Shown here: piece by piece, positions 5,780-51,560 of the stretch | Layout of the letters: every line of letters starts with the position of its first letter | How positions within the stretch are numbered: position 1 is the stretch's first letter | Source: Candidatus Omnitrophota bacterium | Lineage (GTDB): Bacteria; Omnitrophota; Gorgyraeia; JAFGHF01 | Assembly: GCA_016939375.1 (NCBI GenBank) | Contig: JAFGHF010000034.1 | Span: 13,950-77,949, forward strand | Direction: 5' to 3' | Length of the DNA: 64,000 bases | Translations under genes and position numbers: made by a program | Notes under the pieces: generated by a model | Seen by the model: the letters and a program-made list of their open reading frames with translations, nothing else | What the model was told of the DNA's origin: nothing | Database searches by the model: none

Positions 5780-6391
5780 TTATTCCTTTCCGATTTTGAT
5801 TACTTTCACACTATCAAATATGCAGGTACCTTTTCCGGGCGTGCGCGGCTCGAACTGAAAACTCATGATCGGAAAATCCAGAATATCATTCTTCTGGGCG
5901 GTCTGCGGCTGCCAATCCGTGCGCACAAAAAATTTATTAAACGGGCAGGCTATCTCCCTCCAGCCCTCAAAATCATCGTTAAGTAAAAAACGCCATATCT
6001 CTCCGCCGGCGTCTTTGACATCCAAAGCGATCATAGCACCGCTTTTGGCTCCATACATAGACAGAGCAAGCGCCTGATATGCGTTCCAACGTACTTTCTG
6101 AGGTTTAAGCAACCAACGTGCGGCTCCTTTTACATCAAGATTATAACCGCGCGCACACCACATATATCCTTTTGGGTGAAGTTGATAAGTAAGCTTAATC
6201 GCTTGATCTCCGCATGTCTTCAACTGCTTCTCTGCGTAGATCTCTAAAGACGAATCGGCAGATGAGCCAAAATCCACTGTTTCACTATTTAACTCTCCCT
6301 CAAAACTATCGATCAAAACCTGATCGGGGACACTACAACCGGCACAGATCACAACAAAGGTTACTGCCCCGGCCAAAAATAATCTTTTCAT
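5780..6391 (-). CDS. Hypothetical lipoprotein (signal peptide plus Cys lipobox; possible beta-sandwich or carbohydrate-binding-like domain)
   Basis: MKRLFLAGAVTFVVICAGCSV is a lipoprotein signal peptide. The rest has no recognisable catalytic motif. The gene is tightly packed between ldcA and the beta-PGM fusion. Confidence 0.45.
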   Translation of the reverse strand: MKRLFLAGAVTFVVICAGCSVPDQVLIDSFEGELNSETVDFGSSADSSLEIYAEKQLKTCGDQAIKLTYQLHPKGYMWCARGYNLDVKGAARWLLKPQKVRWNAYQALALSMYGAKSGAMIALDVKDAGGEIWRFLLNDDFEGWREIACPFNKFFVRTDWQPQTAQKNDILDFPIMSFQFEPRTPGKGTCIFDSVKVIKIGKE

Positions 6392-6401
6392 ATTTCCTCC
6401 T

Positions 6402-7352
6402 TTATCTTTTTACTCCTGCCTCATTTATTACCAATTTCGGATAATCGGCATCGATCGTAACCGGGACTCCGAAAGGCAATGTCACGTCGATCTCTCCTTG
6501 CCCACGGTGTCCCGATGGAAACCCATATATTATGGGGAAATGTGCATCGTGGAGTATATCATTAAGTATATCCCTGATGGTATACCTTTTCCCGGAATAA
6601 TCAAGGCAGTCGATCATCCGGCCAAAGACTATTCCTTTTAATTTACGGAATTTACCGGAAAGCTTAAGATGCATAAGATAATTGTCGATGACTTCTAAAT
6701 CTTCGCCGATATCTTCAAGAAAAAGAATCTTGTTATCTGTGTCGATGTCGTAAGCCGTGCCCAATGCGCTTATAAATAAGGACATATTGCCGCCAACCAA
6801 TACACCTGTCGCCTTGCCGGGCCTTAGAGACCTTAATGAAGAAAAGTGCAGCTCCCCCAAAGCAATGGGCTGGGTGATCGCCTGCAATAAATAATCCAAT
6901 GTGATCGAGTTCATATTATCATGTATCTCATCCGATACCACCGGACCGTGAAACACTACCATATTTACGGTCTTATAGAGATAAGAAAGAAGGATCGTTA
7001 TATCGCTGTAACCGATAAATATCTTGGGGTTTCTTTTTATTATTTTTTTGTTCAGATAGGGAATGGTGCGTATGGAACCGTAGCCGGCTTTAGCGCAAAA
7101 GATTGCCTTTACCTCTTTATCGGCAAACATGCGGTTGATCTGCTGAGCCCTTTCCTTATCATAACCGGCCATAGACCAGTATTTACTGAAAATCGAGCGA
7201 TCAAATTTTACCTTAAAGCCCAATTTTCTTAGTTTGTCTATTCCCCTTTTGAAATTGCCGATATCAAATGACCAGGCTGGCGCTACGATACCTATCGTAT
7301 CGCCTTTTTTTAGACGCGCTGGTTTAGTCGCTTTTCTTCTACGCATCTTCAT
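6402..7352 (-). CDS. ldcA: LD-carboxypeptidase, peptidase S66 family (LdcA/MccF-like)
   Basis: GDTIGIVAPA ... IGYSDITIL ... FHGP motifs arranged as a Ser-His-Glu S66 triad; 316 aa. Confidence 0.75.
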   Translation of the reverse strand: MKMRRRKATKPARLKKGDTIGIVAPAWSFDIGNFKRGIDKLRKLGFKVKFDRSIFSKYWSMAGYDKERAQQINRMFADKEVKAIFCAKAGYGSIRTIPYLNKKIIKRNPKIFIGYSDITILLSYLYKTVNMVVFHGPVVSDEIHDNMNSITLDYLLQAITQPIALGELHFSSLRSLRPGKATGVLVGGNMSLFISALGTAYDIDTDNKILFLEDIGEDLEVIDNYLMHLKLSGKFRKLKGIVFGRMIDCLDYSGKRYTIRDILNDILHDAHFPIIYGFPSGHRGQGEIDVTLPFGVPVTIDADYPKLVINEAGVKR

Positions 7353-16184: not shown

Positions 16185-16913
16185 TTAGATTACCCCTGCC
16201 GCTTTTCTTAGAGCGCGCAACTCCTTAGCTGTAAGCCTACGCCAATTGCCGGTTTTCAGCTGGCCTAACTTCAAAGGACCAAAAGCCACCCTCTCTATAC
16301 TCAAAACAGGGTGCCTGATCATGGCAAACATCTTTTTTATCTGCCGCTTGCGTCCTTCGGTCAGCCGGATTTCTAATCCGGAAAAAGATTTTTCATCAGC
16401 AATAAGGTCGATCTTGCAAGGAAAGGTCTTTTTTCCTTCCAAAACTACGCCATTTTCCAACTTCTTAAGTGCCTTGGGCGAAATACTCCCCCGCACACAG
16501 ACCCGATAGACCTTTTTAATCCCAAACTTGGGGTGGGATAAACGATAGGCTACTTCACCATCGTTGGTTAAAATTATTAATCCTGTAGTATCTTTATCTA
16601 ACCTGCCTATTGGATAAATACGCAGGCTATTGCAACCGATTAAATCGATTACCTTGCGGCTGGCATATTTATCACGGACAGTAGCTACTACATCTTTAGG
16701 TTTGTTTAGTAAAAAATATACTTTCTTTTGTATGCAAGTGCTTTTATTATCAAGGGTTATATTGTCTTTGCCTATCTCTACTCGCTGCCCCGGCTTTAAG
16801 ATTATCTTACCGTCTACTTTTACTCTTCCGGATTTAATAATCTCTACCGCGGATCTCCGTGAGGCAAAACCTGATCTTGCCAAAGCAACCTGTAAGCGTA
16901 CTTTTTGTCCCAT
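16185..16913 (-). CDS. rluB: Pseudouridine synthase, RsuA/RluB family
   Basis: S4 domain at the N-terminus and catalytic GRLDKDTTGLIILTNDGE motif; 242 aa. Confidence 0.85.
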   Translation of the reverse strand: MGQKVRLQVALARSGFASRRSAVEIIKSGRVKVDGKIILKPGQRVEIGKDNITLDNKSTCIQKKVYFLLNKPKDVVATVRDKYASRKVIDLIGCNSLRIYPIGRLDKDTTGLIILTNDGEVAYRLSHPKFGIKKVYRVCVRGSISPKALKKLENGVVLEGKKTFPCKIDLIADEKSFSGLEIRLTEGRKRQIKKMFAMIRHPVLSIERVAFGPLKLGQLKTGNWRRLTAKELRALRKAAGVI

Positions 16914-17047
16914 TTTAGCCCTAATATCCTACCACAAAGGCCCCCTTTTTGCAAGTGAAATGCAGATTAAGGCCTTTGAGCCTAATACCCGCTGCTTTTG
17001 TCAATTGCTTGACAGGGACCAGAGAAGGTGGTATATTGTTATGCACT

Positions 17048-17809
17048 GTGTTCAGGCTTTGGACAAAAAATTTTATAAATCTAATTTACCCTTTATCTTG
17101 TATAATTTGTAAGATAAAACTGCATCCTTTAAGCGAAAAGCCGTTGTGCGAGAACTGCTGGAATAAAATTGAGTTAACAACGCCTCCTTTTTGCAGGATT
17201 TGCGGAAAAAGCCTCTCTGCCCCGCAAAAACACGGACAGGCAGACAGGCCTGCGAAAACTCAAAATCAAGCCTTTGTATGCAGCAGTTGTCAAAAGTCCT
17301 CATATTTTTTCAAAACATCGCATTCTGTCTGCAGTTACGATGGTATAATTAAAGATTGCATCCATTTGTTTAAGTATAAAGGCAAGCTATCATTGGCCAA
17401 GCCTTTAAGTTTATTCCTGATCGGGTTTGCAAATAAGTTTTTAGATATGGAAAAAGTAGATATGGTCATGCCCGTGCCTTTATGCAGACAGAAAATCCGA
17501 CAAAGGCAGTTTAACCAAGCTTTATTATTAGCCAAACCCCTGGCTTGTGCCTTTGCAACACAAATCGATAACAAGACTTTAGTCAAAGTCAATTCTGGTC
17601 CGGCCCAGGTCTCATTAAGCAAGGCGGAAAGGCTCAATAACGTAAAAGGGGCATTCAGGGTCAAGGGCAGAAGATCAATCAAAGACAAAAGTATTTTGCT
17701 GGTAGACGACGTCTTTACCACTGGCGCGACAGCAAATGAATGTGCTAAAATATTGAAAGAGGCAGGCGCAAGTTCAGTACAAGTATTGACGCTGGCCAGG
17801 AGTAATTGA
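17048..17809 (+). CDS. comF: ComF family protein (phosphoribosyltransferase-domain competence protein ComFC-like)
   Basis: Two CxxC pairs (CIICK...CENCW, CRICGK...CSSCQ) and the C-terminal PRTase motif ILLVDDVFTTGAT. The track ORF starts at ATG 16949, but the first 30 codons look non-coding. GTG 17048 is a plausible true start; this is uncertain. Confidence 0.65.
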   Translation: MFRLWTKNFINLIYPLSCIICKIKLHPLSEKPLCENCWNKIELTTPPFCRICGKSLSAPQKHGQADRPAKTQNQAFVCSSCQKSSYFFKTSHSVCSYDGIIKDCIHLFKYKGKLSLAKPLSLFLIGFANKFLDMEKVDMVMPVPLCRQKIRQRQFNQALLLAKPLACAFATQIDNKTLVKVNSGPAQVSLSKAERLNNVKGAFRVKGRRSIKDKSILLVDDVFTTGATANECAKILKEAGASSVQVLTLARSN

Positions 17810-17831: not shown

Positions 17832-17948
17832 TAGGTTAATATAGGTTAATAAATAATAGGAGAAATAAGGGTTAATAACGGTTAACAGAGGTTGCGAAAG
17901 GCAACCTATATTAACCGACACTGCTAATACATGGCATTGTTAACCTAC
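17832..17948. repeat. Copy A of the GGTTAAY-repeat/hairpin intergenic element family (3 copies in this window)
   Basis: Contains GGTTAAT/GGTTAAC heptamers (17834, 17844, 17870, 17880) and the hairpin AGGTTGC-gaaag-GCAACCT (17888-17907). Positions 17852-17881 are 30/30 identical to the reverse complement of 24647-24676, and the 3' arm is about 85% identical to RC(24575-24620). Confidence 0.7.
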
Positions 17949-17968
17949 GATAAGCTAGGTATTACAAA

Positions 17969-19060
17969 ATGAGAATATTAAGGACGTATCTTTTAAAAGA
18001 ACTGTTTTGGCCGTTTATTCTATCTCTGTCTATTCTGGTCTTCATAATGCTTATGGGCAATTTAGTAAACATTGTCAATATGGTAATCAACAAGGGCGTA
18101 AGCTTTGCCTTGATGAGCCAGCTCATAATCTTGCTTCTTCCTAATATCCTTTCCTATGCCCTGCCCCTGGCTATACTTAGCTCTACGCTCTTGACTATCG
18201 GGCGTCTGGCCGCTGACAATGAGATTATCGCTATCCGGGCAAGCGGCATCAACCTCTATAAGCTATGTTTTCCGATAATCATAATCGGATTGATCCTAAG
18301 CCTTGCCTCCATCCCTCTCAACGACAGGATTAAACCACAAGCTTTATACGCGACCAGAAAGATCGTCAAGCAGATCGGCGTAAAAAGCCCTACAGCCCTT
18401 TTGGAAGCCGGCACGTTTATCAGGTCGTTTAAAAACTATATTATTTTTATCTACGGGATCCACCAAAACAAACTAACCAATATAAGGATATATCAACCGC
18501 AGGAGGGAAAGCCAACCCGCACCATTATCGCCAACAGCGGGGAATTCTTACCTATCCCGGAACAAGACATTATAAGGCTTAAATTAATAAACGGCACAAG
18601 CGACGAACCTAATCTCAAAGACCCCAACACGTTCTACAAGCTCAATTTTCAGAAGTACTATCTCACTTTGGATATCTCTGGGGGCGAACAAAACCTGCAA
18701 AAAAAGCTCAAAGACATGAGCATCCGCGAATTGCGCAAGAAGATGGACGAGCTCAAAAAAGAGAAAATCGAGGATACCACTCCCATAATCACGGAAATAA
18801 ATAAAAAGCTTTCCTTTTCTTTCGCAAATCTGGCGTTTGTCTTAGTAGGGCTTCCGTTGGCGATTTGGACCAGAAGGCGAGAAAAATTTGTAGGCATCGG
18901 ATTGAGCATAGGCTTATTTGTTGCCTATTATGTCCTTTTCCTAGCCGGAGAGGTCCTTTCCATTAAAAAGTTTATCCTGCCTGGTCTGGGAGTCTGGCTG
19001 GCAGATATTGTATTAGCCGTAGTAGGGCTTATCCTTATCTTCCAGACGATGAAACGTTAA
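17969..19060 (+). CDS. lptF: LPS export ABC permease, LptF/LptG (YjgP/YjgQ) family
   Basis: 363 aa, six TM segments with a periplasmic beta-jellyroll insert; N-terminus MRILRTYLLKELFWPF is typical of YjgP/YjgQ. Confidence 0.75.
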   Translation: MRILRTYLLKELFWPFILSLSILVFIMLMGNLVNIVNMVINKGVSFALMSQLIILLLPNILSYALPLAILSSTLLTIGRLAADNEIIAIRASGINLYKLCFPIIIIGLILSLASIPLNDRIKPQALYATRKIVKQIGVKSPTALLEAGTFIRSFKNYIIFIYGIHQNKLTNIRIYQPQEGKPTRTIIANSGEFLPIPEQDIIRLKLINGTSDEPNLKDPNTFYKLNFQKYYLTLDISGGEQNLQKKLKDMSIRELRKKMDELKKEKIEDTTPIITEINKKLSFSFANLAFVLVGLPLAIWTRRREKFVGIGLSIGLFVAYYVLFLAGEVLSIKKFILPGLGVWLADIVLAVVGLILIFQTMKR

Positions 19061-19072
19061 AGGCTTTAAAGC

Positions 19073-20164
19073 ATGAAAATAATCGACCGTTATATCACAA
19101 GAGAGTTTCTTATTCCTTTCTTTTATTGCCTGGCCATCTTCATTTCACTTTATATTGTTATCGACTTGGTCAGCCGCCTGGAGGATATCCTCAAAAACCA
19201 TGTAGAGATCCCAATATTGCTTCAATATTATCTGGCATTCCTGCCTATAATCTTTGTACGTACCGCACCCATAGCGGTACTCTTATCCACGCTCTATGTG
19301 TTAGGTAATCTAAGCAAATACAATGAGGTTACGGCCCTTAAGGCAAGCGGCCTAAACATCTGGAGACTGGCATTGCCTTTCTTTTATCTGGGCTTAATAA
19401 TTAGCATTGTTACATTGGCCATCAACGATAAGCTGCTTCCCCAGGCCAATATGGTCTCCACTACAGTCAAAGAAGAATATCTTGACAAGGAAAAGGAAGA
19501 CACCAGCAATAAAGTAGTGACTGATATCGCCCTCTATGGCACTCATAACCGCCTTATCCATGTGCGTAAATTCATCGTCAATGAGAACCTGCTCAAGGAG
19601 ATCACCATCTTAGAGCAGGATGAAAATGAACGCGTTACCGCAAAAATCCAAGCCAAAGAAGCAAGATGGATAAAAGACAAGTGGGTACTTTTTGATTGCA
19701 TTATATACAACTTCGAAGTACCCGGTCAAGTGACCGAGGAACCTAACTTTTTTAAGAAAATGATCCTGGATATAGAAGAAAAACCAAAGGATTTCCTGCG
19801 CCGGGAATCTTCGGCTGAATTCATGAGTTATCGTAAGTTAAAGGGGTATATTCAGAGGCTTTCCGGAAGCGGGGCCAAGATCGTACAAAAATTACTGGTG
19901 GACCTGCACCACAAGGTATCTTTTGCCTTTGTCAGCCTGGTAGTCATATTTTTGGGTATACCTTTTGCGCTTTCTGCACAAGGTACAGGCAAAGTCGCCA
20001 GCATCGGACTGGCTGTGGTAATATGTTTTTTCTATTATGCCGTGGAAGCCTTAAGCCTTGCTCTGGGCAAGCGCGGCACCCTGCCGCCTTTCCTCTCCGC
20101 CTGGTTTGCCAATATTCTCTTCGGCACAGTGGCCATCATGCTCATGCGCCGCACTCCCAAATAA
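19073..20164 (+). CDS. lptG: LPS export ABC permease, LptF/LptG family (second paralog)
   Basis: 363 aa; MKIIDRYITREFLIPF N-terminus; tandem with the preceding paralog as in lptFG operons. Confidence 0.75.
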   Translation: MKIIDRYITREFLIPFFYCLAIFISLYIVIDLVSRLEDILKNHVEIPILLQYYLAFLPIIFVRTAPIAVLLSTLYVLGNLSKYNEVTALKASGLNIWRLALPFFYLGLIISIVTLAINDKLLPQANMVSTTVKEEYLDKEKEDTSNKVVTDIALYGTHNRLIHVRKFIVNENLLKEITILEQDENERVTAKIQAKEARWIKDKWVLFDCIIYNFEVPGQVTEEPNFFKKMILDIEEKPKDFLRRESSAEFMSYRKLKGYIQRLSGSGAKIVQKLLVDLHHKVSFAFVSLVVIFLGIPFALSAQGTGKVASIGLAVVICFFYYAVEALSLALGKRGTLPPFLSAWFANILFGTVAIMLMRRTPK

Positions 20165-20171
20165 GGAAATA

Positions 20172-21566
20172 TTAAGACTTGGCTAAGGCCTCTGGGATGG
20201 GTTGTTTGATCCTGACGGGGTTGACGTATCTGTTCACCAATGCCTGGGTCTCGGAGGCATTGAGTTTTTTGAACAGAAAAGTAAACTTTTCTTCCAATTC
20301 TTGACCTATGGCGTCGCGTGTATCCTGAGAGAGGTCCATCAACTCTTTTTTGAAGGGGCCGAAACCCTTCTTGCGCGTCTTGTAGATAAACTGCTCATCG
20401 GACATCCCTTCTTTCTTGTCCGCCTGGCAATTTTCTTTAAGCCAACTGTAGATCTTCTCCTTTAAGTCTTTAGGCAGATGCTTGCTTTCATAAATGATAT
20501 TCTGAAAGCCTGTGGCTAAATGCACCTCCGCTGTCTCGGTCTGGGGAAAATGATGGAAAGCATCGTCCGGTAAAGTAGAAGCCCCATGCTGGACTGTTCC
20601 GCTTATGCCATAATCTCGGCGAGCGATTTCTGATATTGTCCTTAATGCATCGAAGTCCAGACTGACCTCAGCGATGCTGCCGTCGGCCAAAACCACTCCT
20701 CCGTGGGCAGTGCCGGTCTGGATGCTTATCTTGCTGATGCCTTTTACACCTTTTACATAATGATCCAATTGTTTCTTATAGCCCTGCATAAAGGCCTTAA
20801 ACTCTTCCGGCGTGGTATTCTTCCCTCCCACTTCACCGATTTCCCCGCCTACGGATATAGTGATCCCCTGCGGCTCTTTCTGCCTAATAAAGGCGGTCAA
20901 TTTAGCTGCCACATCGTAATTGTTATACTGCTGTTCATCTATACTGGGCTTACTTAGATCTACCAGGGTCGAACTGTCAATATCTATATTATAAAATCCG
21001 GCGGCAATGGCCTCGGAGATCAACTGCCTTGCGCCTTCAACTTCCTTTTCCGGGTCCTGACTGAAGTTCTTCGCTTTAAGCTGAAAGTGGTCACCTTGGA
21101 TAAAAAGCGGCCCCTTAAATCCCTCTTTGATCGCCGCAGCCAAACAAACCGCCGTATATTCTTTGGGCCTTTGAAAAGTATAGCTCATTTCTGACTTTGC
21201 GATCTCAAAAATATAAGCCAATGACTTACATTTAATGGCTGTCCTTACCAAAGCTCTGGCCACGTCATATGTCAAACCCCTGATATTGACCGCGGCAGTA
21301 GTGATCTTACTGTACTTAGCCTGGCCCTTTGCCTCATAAAGTCCCTGTATAGAGGAAGGCAACACCTCTAACTCCGCGGCCAGCTCCCAGATAACCCAAA
21401 AACAACTGTCTTTTATTTCCTGGCTTTGGTTTAGGCAAAGATTATAGACAAGATCATCGATTATCTTTTTGACCTTGGCCCTGTCCTCCACTAGCACGCC
21501 TTCTTTGGAAATCTTTATCGCACTTCTGGTATTTTCTTTCAGCTCATTTACGTCTTTGTAAAGCAT
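20172..21566 (-). CDS. Class II (zinc-dependent) fructose-bisphosphate aldolase family protein with an N-terminal extension
   Basis: FIQGDHFQ (DH zinc ligand), ISVGGEIGEVGG (compare E.coli FbaA ELGCTGGEEDG), ISIQTGTAHGGV (compare GNVHGVYK) and VQHGAST; 464 aa. Confidence 0.65.
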   Translation of the reverse strand: MLYKDVNELKENTRSAIKISKEGVLVEDRAKVKKIIDDLVYNLCLNQSQEIKDSCFWVIWELAAELEVLPSSIQGLYEAKGQAKYSKITTAAVNIRGLTYDVARALVRTAIKCKSLAYIFEIAKSEMSYTFQRPKEYTAVCLAAAIKEGFKGPLFIQGDHFQLKAKNFSQDPEKEVEGARQLISEAIAAGFYNIDIDSSTLVDLSKPSIDEQQYNNYDVAAKLTAFIRQKEPQGITISVGGEIGEVGGKNTTPEEFKAFMQGYKKQLDHYVKGVKGISKISIQTGTAHGGVVLADGSIAEVSLDFDALRTISEIARRDYGISGTVQHGASTLPDDAFHHFPQTETAEVHLATGFQNIIYESKHLPKDLKEKIYSWLKENCQADKKEGMSDEQFIYKTRKKGFGPFKKELMDLSQDTRDAIGQELEEKFTFLFKKLNASETQALVNRYVNPVRIKQPIPEALAKS

Positions 21567-22967: not shown

Positions 22968-23747
22968 TTAGAAGTTCTGCGTTGGCTCTATCTCTTCTCT
23001 TTGTATTTCTTTTTCTTCTTTTTCTCTTTTTTGAATATCTGATTTAGTCGGTTTAAGCCAATGTCCAAGCTTGCCTTCTCCGCGCTCCAGGCGGCCGGTT
23101 ATAACCTTTACATTTTCAGCAGTAGCGCGGATATCTTCTATGGCTTCTTTAATCTTGGTTTTGGCCTCTTCATCCAAAGTCTCGTCTAAATTCCCGGTAA
23201 AACTGTTGGCATTGCTTACCGCTTGTTTAAAGTCAGTTCTCATCTTTTCATCCAGCAAATCGCTTGCGCAGTCGAGGAGGTTTTCAAATTTAGCGGCCAC
23301 GCTGCGCACTATTTCCATAACAGTATCGGTAGAGGCGGGGTCACGACCGACCAACATATCTCCTTCTTCTAAAAGGTTGTCATAGTCATCACCGGGGACT
23401 ATCTCTAAATACGTATCACCTATCAACCCTAGCATGCTGACAAAGGCATCGGAATCGCCAGGGAGCTTAAAGCCCTCCTCCAGCCAGATTGAAAGCATTG
23501 CTTTGGCCCGACCGCTTTCGCGATCATAGACCATCTTCACTTCTTTTACTTCACCCGCCTCTATGCCTGCGATCCTGACAGGTGCTCCGATGTCGATACC
23601 GCTGGCAAAGTCAAAGCACACTTGTATAAAATAGCCCGGGCGCAAGATATAGACTTCGCTAATAGAAAATACAGCCAATGTCAATATTATCAATCCGATA
23701 AAAGCAAAAATTCCTACCTTTAGTTCCAAATTAAATTTGCCTGCCAT
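22968..23747 (-). CDS. mlaD: MlaD-like MCE-domain protein (phospholipid transport substrate-binding component)
   Basis: N-terminal TM followed by an MCE domain (VCFDFASGIDIGAPVRIAGIEAGEV); gene order mlaE-mlaF-mlaD. Confidence 0.8.
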   Translation of the reverse strand: MAGKFNLELKVGIFAFIGLIILTLAVFSISEVYILRPGYFIQVCFDFASGIDIGAPVRIAGIEAGEVKEVKMVYDRESGRAKAMLSIWLEEGFKLPGDSDAFVSMLGLIGDTYLEIVPGDDYDNLLEEGDMLVGRDPASTDTVMEIVRSVAAKFENLLDCASDLLDEKMRTDFKQAVSNANSFTGNLDETLDEEAKTKIKEAIEDIRATAENVKVITGRLERGEGKLGHWLKPTKSDIQKREKEEKEIQREEIEPTQNF

Positions 23748-23797: not shown

Positions 23798-24541
23798 TTA
23801 ATCGGTAATAGGACCACGGGCTGCGCCAGTAATAAACTGTCTGACATAAGGGTCTTTTGTATCCTTGATCTCCTGCGGGCTTCCACTCTCTATAATCCGG
23901 CCGTCGTAAAGCATGGAAATCCTATCAGCTATTTTATAGGCACTGACCATATCGTGCGTTACCGCTATCGAGGTAACCTCCAACTTGTCATGAAGTTGGC
24001 GGATCAATGTATTGATGGCATCGGCCATAATCGGGTCAATACCCGTTGTCGGTTCATCATATAAAATAATATCGGGGCGGGCGCAGATCGCTCGGGCAAG
24101 GCCCACCCTCTTTTTCATCCCGCCGCTCAGCTCTGAAGGAGCAAGCTCTTCTATCCCCCTAAGCCCCACTAACTCCAGGCTTTCTCTGACTCTTTTTCTA
24201 ATTGTGATCTCATCCGAATCAGTGTGTTCGCGCAACACGAACCCAACATTCTCTCCCACGCTAAGGGAATCAAAAAGTGCGGCGCCCTGAAAAAGAAGCC
24301 CCATCCTTAATCGCAGACGGTCGATCTCCTTCTCATTGAGCCTGGTGATATCCTGATTGTCAATGATCACCTGTCCGGAGTCCGGTTTTAAAATACCGAC
24401 GATATGTTTTAAAAGGACGCTTTTACCGCAACCAGAACGGCCAATTATGACCTGGGTCTGCCCCTTCTTGATCAACAGATTAAGTTTTTTTAAGACCTCG
24501 TGGCCATTAAATGTTTTGCATAGATTAATTATCTCTATCAT
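23798..24541 (-). CDS. mlaF: Phospholipid ABC transporter ATP-binding protein MlaF
   Basis: Walker A GRSGCGKS, signature LSGGMKKRV, Walker B ILYDEP. The track start (24568) decodes as TTG lying inside repeat element B. The first ATG (24541) aligns with the E.coli MlaF N-terminus and is used here. Confidence 0.85.
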   Translation of the reverse strand: MIEIINLCKTFNGHEVLKKLNLLIKKGQTQVIIGRSGCGKSVLLKHIVGILKPDSGQVIIDNQDITRLNEKEIDRLRLRMGLLFQGAALFDSLSVGENVGFVLREHTDSDEITIRKRVRESLELVGLRGIEELAPSELSGGMKKRVGLARAICARPDIILYDEPTTGIDPIMADAINTLIRQLHDKLEVTSIAVTHDMVSAYKIADRISMLYDGRIIESGSPQEIKDTKDPYVRQFITGAARGPITD

Positions 24542-24557: not shown

Positions 24558-24693
24558 TAGGTTAACAATGGTTAACATAGGTTAACAATACCATGCATTA
24601 GCAGCGTTGGTTAATATAGGTTGCTGTTTTTGTAACCTTTTTTAACCGTTATTAACCCTTATTTCTCCTATTATTTCTTAACTTATATTAACC
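24558..24693. repeat. Copy B (inverted orientation) of the GGTTAAY-repeat/hairpin element, inserted between mlaE and mlaF
   Basis: GGTTAAC at 24560, 24570, 24580 (exact 10-bp phasing) and GGTTAAT at 24609. Hairpin GGTTGC-tgttttt-GTAACC at 24619-24637 (G-U wobble relative to copy A). Its reverse complement aligns across about 100 bp with copy A. Confidence 0.7.
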
Positions 24694-24707
24694 TGCATTT
24701 TTTATTA

Positions 24708-25484
24708 TCACACAAAGTAAAAAAATGCGGTGAACAGACAGTCAGCGGCAATGATCAATACAAATGAAATTACGACGGCTAAGGTGGTCGCTTTGCCTAC
24801 TCCTTCGGCGCCACCTCTGGCATTAAGGCCCTCAAAGCAAGAAACAGTACAGATGACTGCGGCAAATATCAAGGATTTAAAAAGACCGCTAAAAATGTCT
24901 TTTAGGGTTAAGACTTCGAAAGTCGAATTAATAAACATGCTGGAAGTAATACCTAGTTTCCAAATGGCCACAATATAGCCGCCTACAATGCCGATAAAAT
25001 TTGCATATATAGTCAAAATAGGGACCATGGTCATCAAAGCCAAAAATCGGGGGACTACCAGGTAATGGATCGGGTCAGAAGCCATGGTCTGGAGGGCATC
25101 GACTTGCTCCGTGACCTTCATCGTGCCTAACTCAGCGCTGATAGAAGCACCGGCCCGGCCGGCTATTATCAGCGCGGTAAAAACAGGGCCCATCTCCCTA
25201 CACATGGCAATTGACACTAGATGAGCGATAAATCTCTCGGCCCCTAACTTTTGCAGCTGGTAGGCGCTCTGAAAGACCAAGACTATTCCCGTAAACAAAG
25301 AAATCAGAGTGACAATAAACAAACTATCTACTCCGATCTTGCTCATCTGGGCAAAGACCTGCCTACGCTTAAAAGGAGGCCTAAATACACCCAGCGTGGC
25401 CTTAGTCCCCAAAAGCACAATACCGCCTGTATAATAAAGAGCATCTAAAAACTTTTTTCCCAGCCTGTTTAGATAAGCCTTCAT
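24708..25484 (-). CDS. mlaE: Phospholipid ABC transporter permease MlaE
   Basis: 258 aa, 5-6 TM, conserved MlaE/Ttg2B regions (RQVFAQMSKIGVDSL, ALIIAGRAGAS). Confidence 0.85.
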   Translation of the reverse strand: MKAYLNRLGKKFLDALYYTGGIVLLGTKATLGVFRPPFKRRQVFAQMSKIGVDSLFIVTLISLFTGIVLVFQSAYQLQKLGAERFIAHLVSIAMCREMGPVFTALIIAGRAGASISAELGTMKVTEQVDALQTMASDPIHYLVVPRFLALMTMVPILTIYANFIGIVGGYIVAIWKLGITSSMFINSTFEVLTLKDIFSGLFKSLIFAAVICTVSCFEGLNARGGAEGVGKATTLAVVISFVLIIAADCLFTAFFYFV

Positions 25485-30482: not shown

Positions 30483-30983
30483 TTATTTTTTCTTTTTGGA
30501 CTCTAGCGCTCTGATTTTATCTCTCAGGCGCGCAGCTTCTTCAAATTCCTCCATTTTAATCGCTCTCTGCAACTTTGATTTTAACACTTCTATTTCCGAT
30601 TGTTGTTTTTTTGTCTCTTTTTCTTTCTTTAGCGGCGCGCATCCTAAATGCTGGGTAGAGCCGTGGATCCTTTTCAGCAATACGCCCAGGCTGTCTTTAA
30701 AAGCTTCATAACATTCACTGCAACCCAATCTGCCTATGCGCCGGAAATCTTCATAGCTCAAACTACAGTTAGGGCATTTTGTTTCGGTCTTGCCTACAAC
30801 CTCAAACTGCTGCCCCAGGTCGGCCAAGCCAGCTAAAAGGTCGGCCAAGCCAAAATGTTGTTCCATCTGCGCTCCTTTTTGTCGCGCGCATTCCTCGCAT
30901 AAATGCAATTCCGTGATCTGGTTATCAATAATCTCGGTCAAATGGACCGTTGCCTCATTTTTGTGGCATATATTGCATAACAT
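30483..30983 (-). CDS. mcsA: McsA, activator of protein arginine kinase (zinc fingers plus UVR domain)
   Basis: Four CxxC pairs (CNICH...CEEC; CPNC...CSEC) and a C-terminal UvrB/C motif (AIKMEEFEEAARLRDKIRAL). Its start overlaps the ilvE stop (TAATG). Confidence 0.8.
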   Translation of the reverse strand: MLCNICHKNEATVHLTEIIDNQITELHLCEECARQKGAQMEQHFGLADLLAGLADLGQQFEVVGKTETKCPNCSLSYEDFRRIGRLGCSECYEAFKDSLGVLLKRIHGSTQHLGCAPLKKEKETKKQQSEIEVLKSKLQRAIKMEEFEEAARLRDKIRALESKKKK

Positions 30984-31858
30984 TAATATTGTGCTCCTTC
31001 CGTCTTGGTTAACTTACGGAATTCTTTAATTAGCATGAGGGTCGTCTCACCGGGCTTGCCTTTACCGATAACCCTGCCATCGACCTTGACCACCGGAATT
31101 ATTTCCGCTGCCGTGCCGGTCAAAAATACCTCATCGGAAATATATACTTCGTGTCGGGTAATTACATGTTCGTGGGTAGCGATTCGTTTTTTCTTGGCGA
31201 TATCCAAAACGCTATCACGAGTAATCCCGCGCAAAGTGCCCATACATTGAGGCGGAGTATAAAGCTCCCCTTTCTTGACTATAAAGATATTGTCTCCGGT
31301 GCATTCGGCGACATAGCCCAAGGAGTCAAGCATAATTGCTTCTTGGTAGCCAGAATTTATTGCTTCGATCTTAGCCAAGATGTTATTCAAATAATTCAAA
31401 GACTTTATCTGAGGGTTGAGGGCCTCGGGAAGGTTTCTCACCGTGGGCACAGTAATGATCTCCAATCCTTCACGATAGAGCTTCTCTGGATAAAGCACGA
31501 TCTTATCTGTGATGATAATCACATTGGCGTTTCCTTTGCACTTGCGCGGATCCAAGCCCAGATCTCCCGGCCCACGGGTAACCACTACCCTGATGTAAGC
31601 ATCTTTGAGTTTGTTGGCTTTGAGCGTAGAAAGGATCGCTGCTGCCATCTGCTTGTGGGTAAGCGGGATATCCAGCATAATCGATTTAGCCGATTCAAAA
31701 AGCCTGGTCACATGCTCATCAAGCTTAAATACCCTGCGGTTATAAGAACGGATTCCTTCAAACACTCCATCTCCGTATAAGAGCCCGTGGTCAAACACGG
31801 AGACCTTGGCATCCTTTTTTTCATAAAGCTTACCGTTGATATAGACCTTCAAGCCCAT
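30983..31858 (-). CDS. ilvE: Branched-chain amino acid aminotransferase (fold-type IV aminotransferase)
   Basis: FDHGLLYGDGVFEGIR, catalytic Lys region and EAIMLD...ECTGDNIFIV; 291 aa. D-amino-acid aminotransferase cannot be excluded. Confidence 0.75.
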   Translation of the reverse strand: MGLKVYINGKLYEKKDAKVSVFDHGLLYGDGVFEGIRSYNRRVFKLDEHVTRLFESAKSIMLDIPLTHKQMAAAILSTLKANKLKDAYIRVVVTRGPGDLGLDPRKCKGNANVIIITDKIVLYPEKLYREGLEIITVPTVRNLPEALNPQIKSLNYLNNILAKIEAINSGYQEAIMLDSLGYVAECTGDNIFIVKKGELYTPPQCMGTLRGITRDSVLDIAKKKRIATHEHVITRHEVYISDEVFLTGTAAEIIPVVKVDGRVIGKGKPGETTLMLIKEFRKLTKTEGAQY

Positions 31859-31883: not shown

Positions 31884-31990
31884 TTGGTTAATATAGGTTA
31901 ACATTGGTTAACACAGGTTAACATAAGTTGCCTTACGTCCCTTGGCAACCTCTATTAATAACCAACGCGTTTAACAAAAAAATTGTTAAC
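31884..31990. repeat. Copy C of the GGTTAAY-repeat/hairpin element (between lolD stop and ilvE start)
   Basis: GGTTAAT at 31886 then GGTTAAC at 31896, 31906, 31916 (10-bp phasing). Hairpin GTTGCC-ttacgtcccttg-GGCAAC at 31928-31949, followed by CTCTATTAATAACCAACG, which is homologous to CTATATTAACCGACA in copy A. Confidence 0.65.
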
Positions 31991-31996
31991 ATACAA

Positions 31997-32725
31997 TCAA
32001 ATGATTTTTCCGTCTCTAATGTTGATAATGCGGTCGGCCATCTTGGCAATGCTTTTTTCGTGACTGACGATTATCAAAGTCTTTCTCTTGTGCTGATTGA
32101 GTTCATACAAAAGCCCGGCGATCTGCTCGCCTCGCTGCGAATCAAGGTTACCCGTAGGCTCATCGCAAAATATCAAATCCGGGTCATTGATCAAAGTCCT
32201 GGCGATGGCTACTCTCTGCTGCTCTCCTCCGGAGAGTTGGCCCGGCTTATGACTAATTCTCGCTTCTAATCCTACCGCCGTCAATAGTTCAACGGCTTTC
32301 TCTCTTGCCTGCTTAAGCCCCATTCTATTGATCAGGGCCGGAAGCATTACATTTTCCAGCGCGCTAAATTCGGATAAAAGATGATAAAACTGGAACACGA
32401 AGCCTATTTTTTTATTTCTGATCTGAGCCCTTTGCCTCTCGGGAATGCGATAAAGGTCTCTGCCTTCAAAGATGACTTTTCCTTTTGACGGCTCGTCTAA
32501 GCCACCCAAGAGGTGAAGTAAAGTGGACTTCCCCGCTCCCGAAGGGCCTATCACGCACAATATCTCGCCTTTTCTTATCTCAAGGCTGATGCCTTTAAGC
32601 ACTTCTAGGCTTATTTTACCATCTTTATAAAATTTGTAAAGGTTCTCCGCCTTGAGCACAAAACCGCTTTCTATATCGTTAGAACAACTGCTACTCTTGA
32701 CAATCGTGCTTGTACTAACCATCAT
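31997..32725 (-). CDS. lolD: Lipoprotein-releasing system ATP-binding protein LolD
   Basis: Walker [10 protein letters not shown], signature [13 protein letters not shown], Walker [12 protein letters not shown]; sits directly downstream of a MacB/LolC-type permease. Confidence 0.8.
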
Positions 32726-33903
32726 TCATAACGTAAGGTTTCGGCCGGATTAAGCTTAGCTGCCTGCCGGGCCGGATAGACTGTAGCCAAAAGGCTGATC
32801 GCCAAGGCGCTACCGACAATGATTATCGAGTCGATTATGCGCATTTCCACAGGTAGGCTGTCGATATAATAAATATCGCGCGGTAGGTGTATAAACTGGT
32901 ATGTATCCAAAAGATGACAAAGTAAAATTCCTCCGCCTGCGCCCAAAACTGTCCCCAAAACACCGATGGTCAGGCCTTCCAGGGTAAATACTTTTTTGAT
33001 TGCCCTGTTATTCGCGCCGATGGCCTTTAAAATCCCTATGTCTTTGGTCTTTTCCATTACCATCATAATCAACGTCCCGGCAATATTAAAACAGGCCACT
33101 ACTACGATCAACGCCACAATGACAAACATTGCGGTCTTCTCTAACTTTAGAGCGCCAAAAAGGTTACTATTTAAACTGATCCAGTCTCTTACCCAATAAG
33201 GATATCCTAGTGTTTCTTGGATATTTTTACGTACCGCTTTAGCCTGGTAGAGATTATCTAAACGCACTCCCACTCCCGCTACCTTGCCCTCAAGGTTATA
33301 AATCTTTTGCGCATCATTGATGTTGACCAAAACAAGGTTTAGGTCATATTCATACATGCCGGAAGTAAAGATCCCGGCCACCTGGAATTTATACTCCTTT
33401 GCCTTATACGAGGAAACAATAGAAATCTCATCGCCTACGCTTATATAAAAACGTTTGGCCAGTTCCGAACCGATAATGATCTGCCCATCTTTTAAATCAA
33501 GGCTACCATCTTTGAGATATTTTTCCAGATTAGTGACTTTTCTTTCACGCCGGGGATCGATGCCCCTAAGCAACACGCCTGTGACCTCCTTATCGGATTT
33601 AAATAAAGCCTGTCCGTTAATAAAAGCGGATGCCCCTACAACGTGTTGAGCAGAGTCTAGCATCGCATATAGCTCTTGCAAATTATCTATTCCCTCTTGC
33701 CTTTCAATAAGGATATGCGGATTAATGCTGACTATTTTCTCGCGCAACTCTTTATCGAAACCATTCATAACGGCGATGACTACTATAAGGGCCATTACGC
33801 CTAAGGCTATACCCAAGATAGAGATCAGGCTAATCAGAGAGATGAACTTTTCTTTACGCTTTGCCACAAGATAACGCCAACTGACAAAACTTTCCCAGCT
33901 CAT
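32722..33903 (-). CDS. lolE: Lipoprotein-releasing system permease LolC/LolE (FtsX/MacB family)
   Basis: 393 aa with the MacB periplasmic domain between TM1 and TM2 and a C-terminal FtsX domain; 4-nt overlap with lolD. Confidence 0.8.
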   Translation of the reverse strand: MSWESFVSWRYLVAKRKEKFISLISLISILGIALGVMALIVVIAVMNGFDKELREKIVSINPHILIERQEGIDNLQELYAMLDSAQHVVGASAFINGQALFKSDKEVTGVLLRGIDPRRERKVTNLEKYLKDGSLDLKDGQIIIGSELAKRFYISVGDEISIVSSYKAKEYKFQVAGIFTSGMYEYDLNLVLVNINDAQKIYNLEGKVAGVGVRLDNLYQAKAVRKNIQETLGYPYWVRDWISLNSNLFGALKLEKTAMFVIVALIVVVACFNIAGTLIMMVMEKTKDIGILKAIGANNRAIKKVFTLEGLTIGVLGTVLGAGGGILLCHLLDTYQFIHLPRDIYYIDSLPVEMRIIDSIIIVGSALAISLLATVYPARQAAKLNPAETLRYE

Positions 33904-34020
33904 AATATTTCCTTTTTTTGCTTTACGCTGCTGACGGCCGTATAGCTATCATTGGCACCAGTTTCCTTAAGGCCTACATATATTTCCGGAAACAGGTACT
34001 CAAGGCAATGGCTTTAGTTG
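33904..34020. repeat. Copy R1 of the palindrome-string junction element (between lysS stop and lolE start)
   Basis: Contains CTGACGGCCGTATAGCTAT plus CCTTAAGG, TTTCCGGAAA and GGTACTCAAGG. The perfect palindromes are ACGGCCGT, ATAGCTAT, CCTTAAGG and TTTCCGGAAA. About 80% identical to 37960-38062. Confidence 0.7.
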
Positions 34021-37946: not shown

Positions 37947-38062
37947 AAGGTCTATGCTGTCCTTTTTTGGTTGTTGGTGTTGACGGCCGTTTAGCTATTA
38001 TTGGTACTTAGTTTCCTTAAGGTCTACATATATTTCCGGAAACCGGTACTCAAGGCTGTGGT
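37947..38062. repeat. Copy R2 of the palindrome-string junction element (between lnt stop region and plsC start)
   Basis: Reads TTGGTTGTTGGTGTTGACGGCCGTTTAGCTATTATTGGTACTTAGTTTCCTTAAGGTCTACATATATTTCCGGAAACCGGTACTCAAGGCTGTGGTT. The palindromes are ACGGCCGT, TAGCTA, CCTTAAGG, TTTCCGGAAA and ACCGGT. GGTACT occurs twice as a direct repeat, and copy R3 corresponds to a deletion between the two. Confidence 0.7.
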
Positions 38063-39538
38063 TGTTGCCAGTAGGGTTATAGCAATGCAGAAGTAGACAA
38101 AGATGTCCCCATGTTTAGTGTAAAAACTGGGCATGGAGCCTATCTTTAAGTCTTCGCTGGCCCAGCCTTCGGTTACTATATCCCGGCCCAGATAATCATC
38201 GACTCTTTTTAAAATCCTGCCCCGGGGATCTATGAAACAAGAAACACCCGTATTTGCGCTGCGGACTACGCTGACCCTGTTTTCTACTGCGCGAAATATC
38301 GAAGACTGTAAATGCTGATAAGGCTCTGCGGAGGAGCCAAACCAGGCATCGTTAGTCATATTTACCGCTAAGTTCGCCCCGCGCGAAACAAAAATGCGTA
38401 CCAGATCTGAAAACACGTCTTCAAAACAAATAAGGGCATTACATCTTACGCCGGGGACAACGCCAAATATCGTATACTCATCTCCCCGGCTAAAATTCCC
38501 GATCAAACCGGCAAAAGAAAAACGAGAGAAAAACTCAGGCCAGGGTATAAACTCCCCGAATGGGACCAGGCGCAGCTTATCATAACGCTGGAGGATCTCT
38601 CCGGAAGATAATAACGTGGCGCTGTTATGGATCTTTGAGCCCTCTGCCTCATGGGGCGTACCAAGCAAAAGATAGGACGGAGCAATGCTCTTAGATAAAG
38701 AACTAATTTCTTCTAAGAGCTCGGGTTCGCTTTCCAGAAACCCCGGCACCGAAGTCTCCGGCCAGATGATAATGTCCGGCTTATTAAAAGCGGCCTCTTT
38801 TGTCAAACGGCGATACTTGGCCAAAATAGATTCCCGAAAACGCGGATCCCACTTTTGCACCTGCGGGATATTACCTTGTATAACCGCGACTTTGACGCTT
38901 TGACCTTCTATCGGATGAAACAGCTTAAAATATCCATAAGCCAATGAAAAAAGCACGGGCAAGAAAGCGCAGAGTACAAAGATTGATCTTGCAAACCTTT
39001 TTTCAGTTCTCTGTCCTTTGTTTTCCAAAACAAGGCTTACTGTCTGATAAATCCCGACATTGACTAAGACAATCAAAAATGATACGCCATATGCCCCGGT
39101 GATATCGCTGATCTGGATAATCGGTAAAACTAAATATTGGGAATAGGCTAAAAGCGCCCAATTAAATCCCAGAATTGGCAGATGGCCGCGCACAAATTCC
39201 AAAACGACCCAGGCCGCAGGAATAAAAACAAGATTAAGCAGTCTAAATCTTTTGAATGCAAAAATAAATATACCAAAGGCTGCAAAATAAAACGCCAAAT
39301 AACACATAAGTACCACAAAGCCCAAGGTACTTACATAATTTATCCAATATAATGTGAGAGAGAAAAAAACTAAGCCTACAAGATAAGAGAGCAAAAAAGC
39401 GGACCGGGGATTTTTCTGTCTTTTAAGCGCAAAGAGCCAAGGGACAAGGGCAAACCAGGCAAAGATTGCAATACCGGGTTTAGGAAAGGCCAGGGTCAGG
39501 AAAATAGCGGATAAGATTGGTAAAAACAATATCATCAT
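38024..39538 (-). CDS. lnt: Apolipoprotein N-acyltransferase
   Basis: Multi-TM N-domain plus CN-hydrolase domain (VIQGNIPQ, IIWPETSVP, ICFEDVF catalytic Cys). The last about 13 codons are encoded by repeat R2. Confidence 0.85.
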   Translation of the reverse strand: MMILFLPILSAIFLTLAFPKPGIAIFAWFALVPWLFALKRQKNPRSAFLLSYLVGLVFFSLTLYWINYVSTLGFVVLMCYLAFYFAAFGIFIFAFKRFRLLNLVFIPAAWVVLEFVRGHLPILGFNWALLAYSQYLVLPIIQISDITGAYGVSFLIVLVNVGIYQTVSLVLENKGQRTEKRFARSIFVLCAFLPVLFSLAYGYFKLFHPIEGQSVKVAVIQGNIPQVQKWDPRFRESILAKYRRLTKEAAFNKPDIIIWPETSVPGFLESEPELLEEISSLSKSIAPSYLLLGTPHEAEGSKIHNSATLLSSGEILQRYDKLRLVPFGEFIPWPEFFSRFSFAGLIGNFSRGDEYTIFGVVPGVRCNALICFEDVFSDLVRIFVSRGANLAVNMTNDAWFGSSAEPYQHLQSSIFRAVENRVSVVRSANTGVSCFIDPRGRILKRVDDYLGRDIVTEGWASEDLKIGSMPSFYTKHGDIFVYFCIAITLLATTTALSTGFRKYM

Positions 39539-50066: not shown

Positions 50067-50133
50067 ATATTTCCTTCTTTTGGTTGTTGGTGTTGACGGC
50101 CGTATAGCTATTACAGGTACTCAAGGCTGTGGT
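50067..50133. repeat. Copy R3 (short form) of the palindrome-string junction element (between uvrC stop and ogt start)
   Basis: TTGGTTGTTGGTGTTGACGGCCGTATAGCTATTACAGGTACTCAAGGCTGTGGTT, with a 23/23 match to R2 at its 5' arm. The uvrC stop TGA is the TCA of GGTACTCA (50121-50123). Confidence 0.7.
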
Positions 50134-51560
50134 TTTCTAAGATGCTTAATAATATTTCCCGCAGTCTTTTTATCGATTCCTTCTACTGCGAGCAGATCCT
50201 CCAAGCTTGCTTGCCGCAATGCCAGAATAGATTTAAAATGTTTAAGCAAAATGCGTTTTCTTTTGGGGCCCACCCCGGGAATATTGTCTAATTCTGAGAT
50301 GCGCATGCTTTTTCCTCTTAAAGCCCTGTGGTATGAAATAGCGAAGCGGTGAGCTTCATCGCGTATCTTCTGCAAAAGATGCAAGGCCTTAGATTCATGC
50401 GGCAGACGTACTGCTTTGCCGCCGGGAGAAAAAATCGTCTCTAAGCGCTTGGCCAAGGAGACCACCGGGATCGCTGTCAAGCCCAGCTTATCCAGCTCTC
50501 TGCGGGCAGAAGACCATTGTCCTTTGCCTCCGTCCACCAAAACCAAGTCCGGAAGCGGCAAGACCGTTGCCTGCGGCTCTCTACGATACCTTCTATGTAC
50601 CACTTCTCTAATCATGGCGTAATCATCCACGCCTTTTACCGTCTTTATTCTGAACCTGCGGTAGGTATTTTTATCCGCTAGCCCCTCTACGAAACTGACC
50701 ATGGAGCCGCACAGACCCACTCCTGAAATCTCTGATATATCAAAGGCCTCTATGCGATAAGGCATCTTCTTAAGCTGCAAGGCCTCTTTTAGCTGAAAGA
50801 TATCATCTTTACGGTCGATCTCTTTAGTCTGAAAGACTATTTCATTTAAAGAGTTGATTCTGTCCCTTAACGAAGCCGCTTCTTCGAATTGCTCGTCCCT
50901 TGAAGCCTGATGCATCCTCTGCTTGAGCTCTCTGAAGAGCTCATTATATCTGCCTTGAAGAAAAAGCCCTAATTGTTTTATCGTCCTGCGATACTCAGTG
51001 ACATCGACATCACGCACGCACATGCCTGGGCAAAGCCTTAGCTGCAGGTAAAGACAAGGCTTCTGGGGAAGGTTTTTACAGCTTCTAAAGGGGAATATCT
51101 CCCTGATGCTCCTCAAGGCTTCTTTCAGCTGTCGAGCACTTATATAAGGGCCGTAGTACTTAGCGGTTTTTTCTTTCTTTCCTCTGCCAATTAAAATATA
51201 GGGATATTGCTGATTTTCAACGACCTTTATATAAGGATAGCTTTTATCATCTTTTAAAGCAGCGTTATAATATGGTTTATATTTTTTAATCAACGAGTTT
51301 TCCAAAAGCAACGCCTGGGCCGGCGATGAGGTCTGGATATATTCGATATCGCGGAGGCGAGAAAGCAACGCCTGGACCTTATCCGTAGGTGGCTTCTGAT
51401 AATATGAACCTACCCGCTTACGCAAAGAAGAGGCCTTGCCCACGTAAAGGATGACTCCCCTCTGGTCTTTCATTAAATACACTCCGGGAGCATCGGGAAA
51501 GGCTTTTACCCTGTTAGAAAGTCTCTTTCTAGCAGGGCTTACTTTCTTTTTAATATCCAT
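50121..51560 (-). CDS. uvrC: Excinuclease ABC subunit C (compact form)
   Basis: GIY-YIG N-domain (GVYLMKDQRGVILYVGKA), UvrBC motif (EEAASLRDRINSL), RNaseH-like endonuclease region (IEAFDISE) and C-terminal HhH; 479 aa. Confidence 0.8.
   Translation of the reverse strand: MDIKKKVSPARKRLSNRVKAFPDAPGVYLMKDQRGVILYVGKASSLRKRVGSYYQKPPTDKVQALLSRLRDIEYIQTSSPAQALLLENSLIKKYKPYYNAALKDDKSYPYIKVVENQQYPYILIGRGKKEKTAKYYGPYISARQLKEALRSIREIFPFRSCKNLPQKPCLYLQLRLCPGMCVRDVDVTEYRRTIKQLGLFLQGRYNELFRELKQRMHQASRDEQFEEAASLRDRINSLNEIVFQTKEIDRKDDIFQLKEALQLKKMPYRIEAFDISEISGVGLCGSMVSFVEGLADKNTYRRFRIKTVKGVDDYAMIREVVHRRYRREPQATVLPLPDLVLVDGGKGQWSSARRELDKLGLTAIPVVSLAKRLETIFSPGGKAVRLPHESKALHLLQKIRDEAHRFAISYHRALRGKSMRISELDNIPGVGPKRKRILLKHFKSILALRQASLEDLLAVEGIDKKTAGNIIKHLRKPQP

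Follow-up and report, generated by a model that had tools for sequence, protein, structure and literature searches.

Three Palindromic Arrays in the Window

The window (the whole 64-kb stretch of DNA analyzed here) contains three intergenic elements, A, B, and C, which were located where the initial annotation had placed them and in the gene context it had given: A is flanked by comF and lptF, B by mlaE and mlaF, and C by lolD and ilvE (Table 1). Each element lies upstream of the ribosome-binding site of its downstream gene, lptF, mlaF, and ilvE, respectively. C sits upstream of ilvE, not of lolCDE.

Table 1. Positions of the repeat elements, their units, and the neighboring genes in the window.
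Feature	Position	Strand	Description
comF-family gene	16949..17809	+	Upstream of A; stop 22 bp before the element
Element A	17832..17948	.	ORF-less palindromic array, 5+3 units
A, left units	17834, 17844, 17870, 17880, 17890		19-nt insert at 17851-17869; unit at 17890 is GGTTGC
A, loop	17896-17900		
A, right units	17901, 17911, 17940		GCAACC, TTAACC, then a 23-nt insert and TTAACC
lptF	17969-19060	+	Downstream of A; start 20 bp after the element
lptG	19073-20164	+	Follows lptF
mlaD	22968-23747	-	Part of mlaEFD, near B
mlaF	23798-24541	-	Flanks B
Element B	24558..24694	.	Inverted relative to A, ~90% identical to A, 5+5 units
B, left units (+ strand)	24560, 24570, 24580, 24609, 24619		Insert after the third unit; unit at 24619 is GGTTGC
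B, loop	24625-24631		
B, right units	24632, 24642, 24652, 24678, 24688		Unit at 24632 is GTAACC; insert after the third unit
mlaE	24708-25484	-	Flanks B
ilvE	30983-31858	-	Flanks C
Element C	31884..31992	.	Divergent copy; five left units, decayed right arm
C, left units	31886, 31896, 31906, 31916, 31926		Unit at 31926 is AGTTGC
C, loop	31932-31944		
C, right arm	31945		GCAACC, then decayed units TTAATA and TTAACA
lolD	31997-32725	-	Flanks C
lolC/E	32722-33903	-	lolCDE neighborhood of C

All three elements are quasi-palindromes, in which up to five direct 10-bp units (RGTTAAYAWM) lead to a central GGTTGC-loop-GYAACC, followed by inverted units of the TTAACC type. The central pair is GGTTGC/GCAACC in A, GGTTGC/GTAACC in B, and AGTTGC/GCAACC in C, enclosing loops of 5, 7, and 13 nt, respectively. 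The heptamers had initially been described as direct repeats spaced exactly 10 bp apart. This holds for the left units and for the spacing inside blocks, but each element also has inverted TTAACC units on the right, and inserts interrupt the regular phase: the spacing is 26 bp across the left insert of A, and both arms of B are split 3+2, with inserts that separate the units by 23 and 20 nt. The GC stem that had been treated as a separate module is actually a variant repeat unit, GGTTGC/GYAACC. The sequence reported as conserved after this stem, CTATATTAACC(A/G)AC(A/G)CTGCTAA, is common to A and B, but C reads CTCTATTAATAACCAACGCG. An element keeps its layout when reverse-complemented, so the arrays alone do not define a strand.

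Sixteen of the 22 GGTTAAY heptamers in the window fall within the A, B, and C spots, and phased chains of at least three units occurred at a mean of 0.04 per shuffled window. Alignment of A with the reverse complement of B gave 91% identity over 67 nt and 89% over 53 nt, non-motif sequence included, and contained an identical run of 35 nt. C is a distant relative, which has the arrays and the central stem in common with A and B. The three elements are non-random, homologous copies of one family, as the initial annotation had proposed.

Orthologous Spacers in Syntenic Relatives

Three relatives from the Omnitrophota (L125, L126, and L127) were found via MlaF homologues (80-84% MlaF identity) and share an identical gene order with the window. 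L126 and L127 span the region from lysS-lolCD-ilvE through mlaEFD to lptGF-comF and cover all three spacers; L125 ends after mlaD and covers the lolD-ilvE and mlaE-mlaF spacers only. The lolD-ilvE spacer, which is 138 bp in the window and holds C, measures 13 bp in L125, 38 bp in L126, and 129 bp in L127, where it is occupied by an unrelated repeat. The mlaE-mlaF spacer (166 bp in the window, with B) is reduced to 47, 19, and 2 bp, respectively, and the comF-lptF spacer (159 bp, with A) to 3 bp in L126 and to 78 bp, with an unrelated palindrome, in L127. The GGTTAA element was absent from every orthologous spacer covered (two in L125, three each in L126 and L127). This presence and absence at orthologous sites indicates insertions, not conserved control regions, and does not support the previously suggested link to envelope-lipid ABC transport.

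We observed other small repeats in these spacers. The lptF-lptG (16458-16593) and comF-lptF (17683-17760) spacers of L127 (CP070837.1) each carry a different palindrome with the ends GAACCCCGCYCTTCC ... GGAAGRGCGGGGTG. Small palindromes of unrelated kinds seem to insert repeatedly into the operon spacers around lptFG. In L127, the lolD-ilvE spacer (2618-2746) holds another short-unit repeat, composed of TAGATAC and GCGACTA units, and the mlaE-mlaF spacer of L125 (9954-10000) contains two direct copies of CCAGCTGACCAACAGA. The window itself has a second family of ~110-bp intergenic repeats (33905-34013, 37954-38063, and 50067-50134; 74-92% identical; core TTGACGGCCGTATAGCTATTATTGGTAC...CTACATATATTTCCGGAAAC). 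Its first copy (33905-34013) fills the lysS-lolC spacer, which is 66 bp and 3 bp in two of the syntenic relatives and is replaced by a gene overlap in the third; this copy therefore also looks like an insertion. A minus-strand ORF of 1281 aa at 58938-62783 of the window, with internal repeats of ~74 and ~247 nt, encodes a repeat-rich protein unrelated to the elements.

The source organism is a Candidatus Omnitrophica MAG, as the identical MlaF sequence bears this name. Both of its Logan short-read contigs, L001 (window 17856-20739) and L128 (which ends near 24671), terminate inside A and B, and the identical MlaF was present on a 1.3-kb Logan contig. Repeats of the GGTTAA-array type break short-read (de Bruijn) assemblies.

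Distribution and Architecture Across Phyla

One genome per species was scanned with the pattern GGTTAAY-N3-GGTTAA-N4-RGTTRC. The scan returned at least 117 stretches, which constitute a sample, not a census. The pattern was found in at least six phyla (Omnitrophota, Ratteibacteria, Planctomycetota/Brocadiaceae, Bacteroidota, Ignavibacteriales, and Saccharibacteria, together with unclassified MAGs), usually with many array copies per genome among the matches listed; near-identical copies occupy 8 sites in Omnitrophota STD1_168. Among the matches listed, the unit spacing was exactly 10 bp in 438 of 446 cases (98%), and the modal number of units per arm was five (31/61 and 38/61), with 5+5 as the commonest pair. 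Within the same set, both arms showed the same unit consensus, RGTTAAYAWM, and the asymmetric center GGTTGC...GTAACC was present, on either strand, in 56 of 81 elements.

The genomic setting was analyzed in these listed matches as well. When both neighbors were called, 43 of 54 elements lay between co-directional genes, often 5-30 bp from each, which makes co-transcription probable. The orientation of ORF-less copies relative to the host genes showed no significant bias (17:9). The 114 flanking genes represented 184 Pfam families, PF05635 being the commonest (five members), and the 25 commonest families included no transposase family. The preference for envelope transport genes that the initial annotation had read from the window was not borne out elsewhere, as ABC_tran appeared only twice. 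Together with the relatives that lack the elements, the diversity of neighbors indicates that the association with envelope transporters is a local coincidence within a conserved envelope gene neighborhood. Neither target-site duplications nor defined termini were found at A, B, C, or the 8 near-identical STD1_168 copies.

Several individual loci illustrate variations in the arrays. The left arm of one locus has 8 units in one sample (L119, 5912-6000) and 11 units in another (L120, 3207-3325), implying that array length changes on short time scales. Arrays of up to 15+10 units were observed in three successive intergenic spacers of L087 (Omnitrophota; 1837-1950, 2365-2460, and 6212-6516), and these contain a GGTTACC variant unit at 9-10-bp spacing. 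In the Bacteroidota MAGs L023, L045, L067, L092, and L104, a GGTTAA array is followed by a hairpin of TTAGGG/GTTAGG-like 7-nt units and CCTAAC complements, which suggests that array elements of this kind include further unit types. A single IS200-like Y1 transposase domain (Y1_Tnp; weak, E 5e-8) was detected, at L101 1533-2099, ~230 bp from an 8+7-unit array; the domain was not enriched among the neighbors of the matches listed.

Arrays Bracket a Four-Helix-Bundle Protein Gene

An all-against-all comparison of the array loci revealed a small conserved gene that adjoins the arrays in different phyla. Its product, a "four helix bundle protein" of ~130 aa, scored above the curated cut-offs of both PF05635 (23S rRNA intervening sequence protein) and TIGR02436. 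Homologues are 60-75% identical across phyla. PF05635 genes lay within arrays or immediately next to them in L087, L101, L076 (twice), L036, L020, and L098. In L087, a left array that ends in GGTTGC and a right array enclose the gene exactly, and those in L101, L020, L036, and L076 are embedded among complete arrays. Over 31 nt, the inner left arm of A shares 93.5% identity with the arm in front of a four-helix-bundle gene in L122, L123, L138, and L139. The initial annotation could match the elements to nothing known; they match the flanks of PF05635/TIGR02436 genes.

Because the array loci had been picked by a DNA pattern, the association was retested from the protein side. An exact protein look-up yielded three independent loci, all of which are bracketed by arrays; in one of them, between cmk and mnmE, the gene has five units before it and five after it. 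Metagenomes were also scanned with the protein profile, and 73 loci with enough flanking sequence were kept. At least three correctly oriented phased units were present on at least one side in 64 of these loci and on both sides in 41, with units in the wrong orientation at 3 and 5 loci. The background frequency of phased arrays was 9 in 583 windows (1.5%). The modal unit number in the protein-selected loci was again five. In L122 and L124, the TAA stop codon of the gene lies inside the first inverted unit, GTAACC (AAG-TAA-CC).

ORF-less copies keep both arms and a short loop, and in the array-selected loci they outnumber the gene-bearing copies by ~10:1 (~90% ORF-less) among the matches listed. 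The element at L005 598-719 is a direct deletion intermediate between the two forms: its 72-nt loop still encodes the N-terminal ~25 residues of the protein (E 2e-8). In the six-frame ORFs of the 64-kb window, we detected no four-helix-bundle gene or fragment. Combined with their loops of 5-13 nt, this identifies the window copies as ORF-less derivatives.

A search of the PDB identified 2GSC, which comprises five chains, as a relative of the protein (E 4e-9). A passage in PMC4990558 that cites Lin et al. 2006 describes 2GSC as a homopentameric toroid built from four-helix bundles. The protein family is also homologous to Avd, the accessory protein of diversity-generating retroelements (PMC10053308). 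The PADLOC defense models gave no match for the four-helix-bundle protein.

RNA Structure and Protein Recognition

The initial annotation had considered both a structured RNA, on the grounds that the stem is kept and the loop varies, and sites recognized by a protein. Folding of A, B, and C was good (z -2.6 to -5.2), and about as good on one strand as on the other. No Rfam family was found at the elements at gathering score or E<=1, and no rRNA or other Rfam family turned up in the window; at the elements, a promoter and terminator scan gave no more than chance would produce. Of the four spacer positions of the unit, two (6 and 8) were complementary above the shuffled expectation. Hairpin covariation was nevertheless rejected, since left units were just as complementary to out-of-register right units as to their true partners. 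This level reflects how homogeneous the units are inside one element and not selection for particular base pairs. In gene-bearing copies, G·U slightly exceeded A·C on the sense strand (121:86); two positions account for the excess, and one of the two is under constraint from the stop codon. Taken together, these comparisons are weak evidence for selection on the hairpin. The stem is conserved in sequence without covariation, and the argument for a structured RNA was not supported.

The suggestion of protein recognition fared better. Neither the unit sequence nor its exact helical phase, both conserved across phyla, is needed for base pairing, which argues that a conserved protein recognizes each unit. 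Among conserved proteins, only the four-helix-bundle protein was found to be associated with the arrays.

Proposed Origin and Mechanism

We consider A, B, and C to be miniature gene-less derivatives of a widespread palindromic cassette that normally carries the PF05635/TIGR02436 four-helix-bundle gene, and assign this interpretation a probability of about 75%. The four-helix-bundle protein may act in trans to spread or maintain the copies, a trans partner being assumed in the source genome. In the proposed mechanism, one pentamer would read each arm of five units spaced at one per helical turn; as TTAA steps favor bending, the nucleic acid could wrap. Co-transcribed arms could pair to form a long imperfect hairpin in the transcript of the host operon, and RNase III would probably cut this hairpin, by analogy with rRNA intervening sequences carrying the same gene family. 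The elements at lptFG, mlaEFD, and lolCDE-ilvE are most likely neutral or mildly modulatory passengers.

The agreement between five units per arm and a pentamer is one of number only, and we infer that the protein may bind the arrays. A more specific proposal is that the S23p/IVP pentamer binds five-unit arrays sequence-specifically, one unit per subunit, with the nucleic acid bent around the ring, that this binding drives the spread or retention of transposase-free selfish cassettes, and that the same system also seeded the rRNA intervening sequences. This proposal is tentative, and we hold it to be somewhat doubtful. If true, it would provide a function for a protein family that has been uncharacterized for ~30 years. 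The exact 10-bp phase and the mode of five units per arm, together with the pentameric state of the relatives, make a concrete, testable binding hypothesis.

Alternative Explanations

The arrays could instead be operator or iteron-type transcription-factor sites (e.g., OmpR/PhoB-type sites, with 10-bp direct repeats) that co-regulate lptFG, mlaEFD, and lolCDE. The phased units share a helical face and lie directly upstream of lptF, mlaF, and ilvE, and all three copies in the window adjoin envelope ABC genes. However, C precedes ilvE and not lolCDE, the covered spacers of the syntenic relatives contain no GGTTAA units (several are only 2-47 bp long, and the 129-bp and 78-bp spacers of L127 hold unrelated repeats), and the neighbors in other genomes are diverse (ABC_tran in 2 of 114 among the matches listed). 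Furthermore, the ~90% identity of A and B extends across the non-motif spacer in unrelated contexts, indicating copying and not convergent sites, and the array architecture tracks PF05635 genes. The operator reading is already largely refuted, and we give it very little chance; a false lead, the "envelope regulon operator", is thereby removed for annotation. If the element acted mainly in cis as a structured RNA (a hairpin for processing, stability, or attenuation, selected because it benefits the host) and the protein gene were incidental, this would agree with the location of most copies between co-directional genes, where they are probably co-transcribed, with their good folding, with the slight enrichment of G·U on the sense strand of copies that carry the gene, and with rRNA intervening sequence hairpins being RNase III substrates. 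The equal folding of both strands, the absence of partner-specific covariation, and the lack of an Rfam match at the elements do not favor this account. Base pairing alone requires neither a cross-phylum unit sequence nor an exact 10-bp phase, and the differences in presence between close relatives speak against a function required by the host. We therefore regard a primary RNA role as quite improbable.

A conventional MITE or REP-like element, moved by a transposase (DDE or Y1/RAYT) encoded elsewhere and with the four-helix-bundle gene as a frequent passenger, shares many features with these copies, which are small, palindromic, multi-copy, intergenic, and polymorphic. One IS200-like Y1 gene is located near the arrays in L101. 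The initial annotation had named scattered copies without covariation as the sign of a MITE-like element, and what we found is close to this description. On the other hand, the search for target-site duplications gave none, the arms consist of periodic arrays instead of simple terminal repeats, and among the matches listed PF05635 is the top neighbor family, with no transposase in the 25 commonest of 184. The gene is also placed to the nucleotide within the arms (its stop falls in the first inverted unit in L122 and L124) and is bracketed in 64 of the 73 protein-selected loci, both of which are unlike cargo. Transposase-driven movement thus appears unlikely, and we favor derivation from the cassette that carries the four-helix-bundle gene.

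Comparison With Known Systems

The literature searched for the motif and for PF05635/TIGR02436, whose limited coverage is no proof of novelty, held no description of the arrays. To our knowledge, no role has been known for the TIGR02436/PF05635 family since the first rRNA intervening sequences were described. The arrays represent a very common, unexplained repeat architecture of uncultivated phyla that is tied to this family, and the cassette exemplifies selfish elements in which the resident gene is not recognizable as a transposase.

Like MITEs and REP/BIME, Correia, and ERIC-type repeats, the elements are short, palindromic, multi-copy, located in operon spacers, and polymorphic between relatives, and the non-autonomous derivatives outnumber the gene-bearing parent. 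They differ in that the parent encodes a four-helix-bundle protein instead of a transposase, the arms are strictly phased arrays, and target-site duplications were absent at the copies inspected (A, B, C, and the STD1_168 set). The homologous four-helix-bundle protein Avd is pentameric and binds nucleic acid. Unlike the Avd systems, the present loci have no reverse transcriptase domain beside the 114 sampled neighbor genes among the matches listed, and we know of no Avd genes bracketed by phased arrays. A model for the reading of the arrays by a cooperative oligomer is offered by parC of plasmid R1, in which two sets of five 11-bp repeats are bound by ParR, and by iterons. The likeness lies in two blocks of ~five units at a spacing of one helical turn; in contrast, the blocks described here are inverted, not direct, and are chromosomal, present in many copies, and devoid of partition genes.

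The 23S rRNA intervening sequences with an S23p/IVP ORF (Leptospira, Coxiella burnetii, and Brucella) resemble the cassette in carrying a PF05635 protein gene within a stem loop of inverted terminal sequences, in having short, variable direct repeats just before the start codon, and in occurring as ORF-less or decaying versions. In the Coxiella 23S rRNA intervening sequence, the PF05635-family gene is contained in a terminal-inverted-repeat stem loop that RNase III excises, and the sequence is regarded as selfish, with a decaying ORF (PMC4990558). Its start codon is preceded by tandem heptamers of variable number, comprising two to three copies of GACAGAT and a degenerate GACAGAA copy (PMC4990558). 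The intervening sequences differ from the window elements in their location, helix 45 or 25 of the 23S rRNA as opposed to spacers between protein-coding genes, and in their stem, which is a plain duplex of ~28 bp, whereas each arm here consists of ~five 10-bp GGTTAA units. Cutting by RNase III is documented for the rRNA sequences; for the elements described here it is predicted from their hairpin potential. The elements are best described as the same kind of object as the intervening sequence cassettes, in a different place, between protein-coding genes, and with distinctive phased 10-bp arms.
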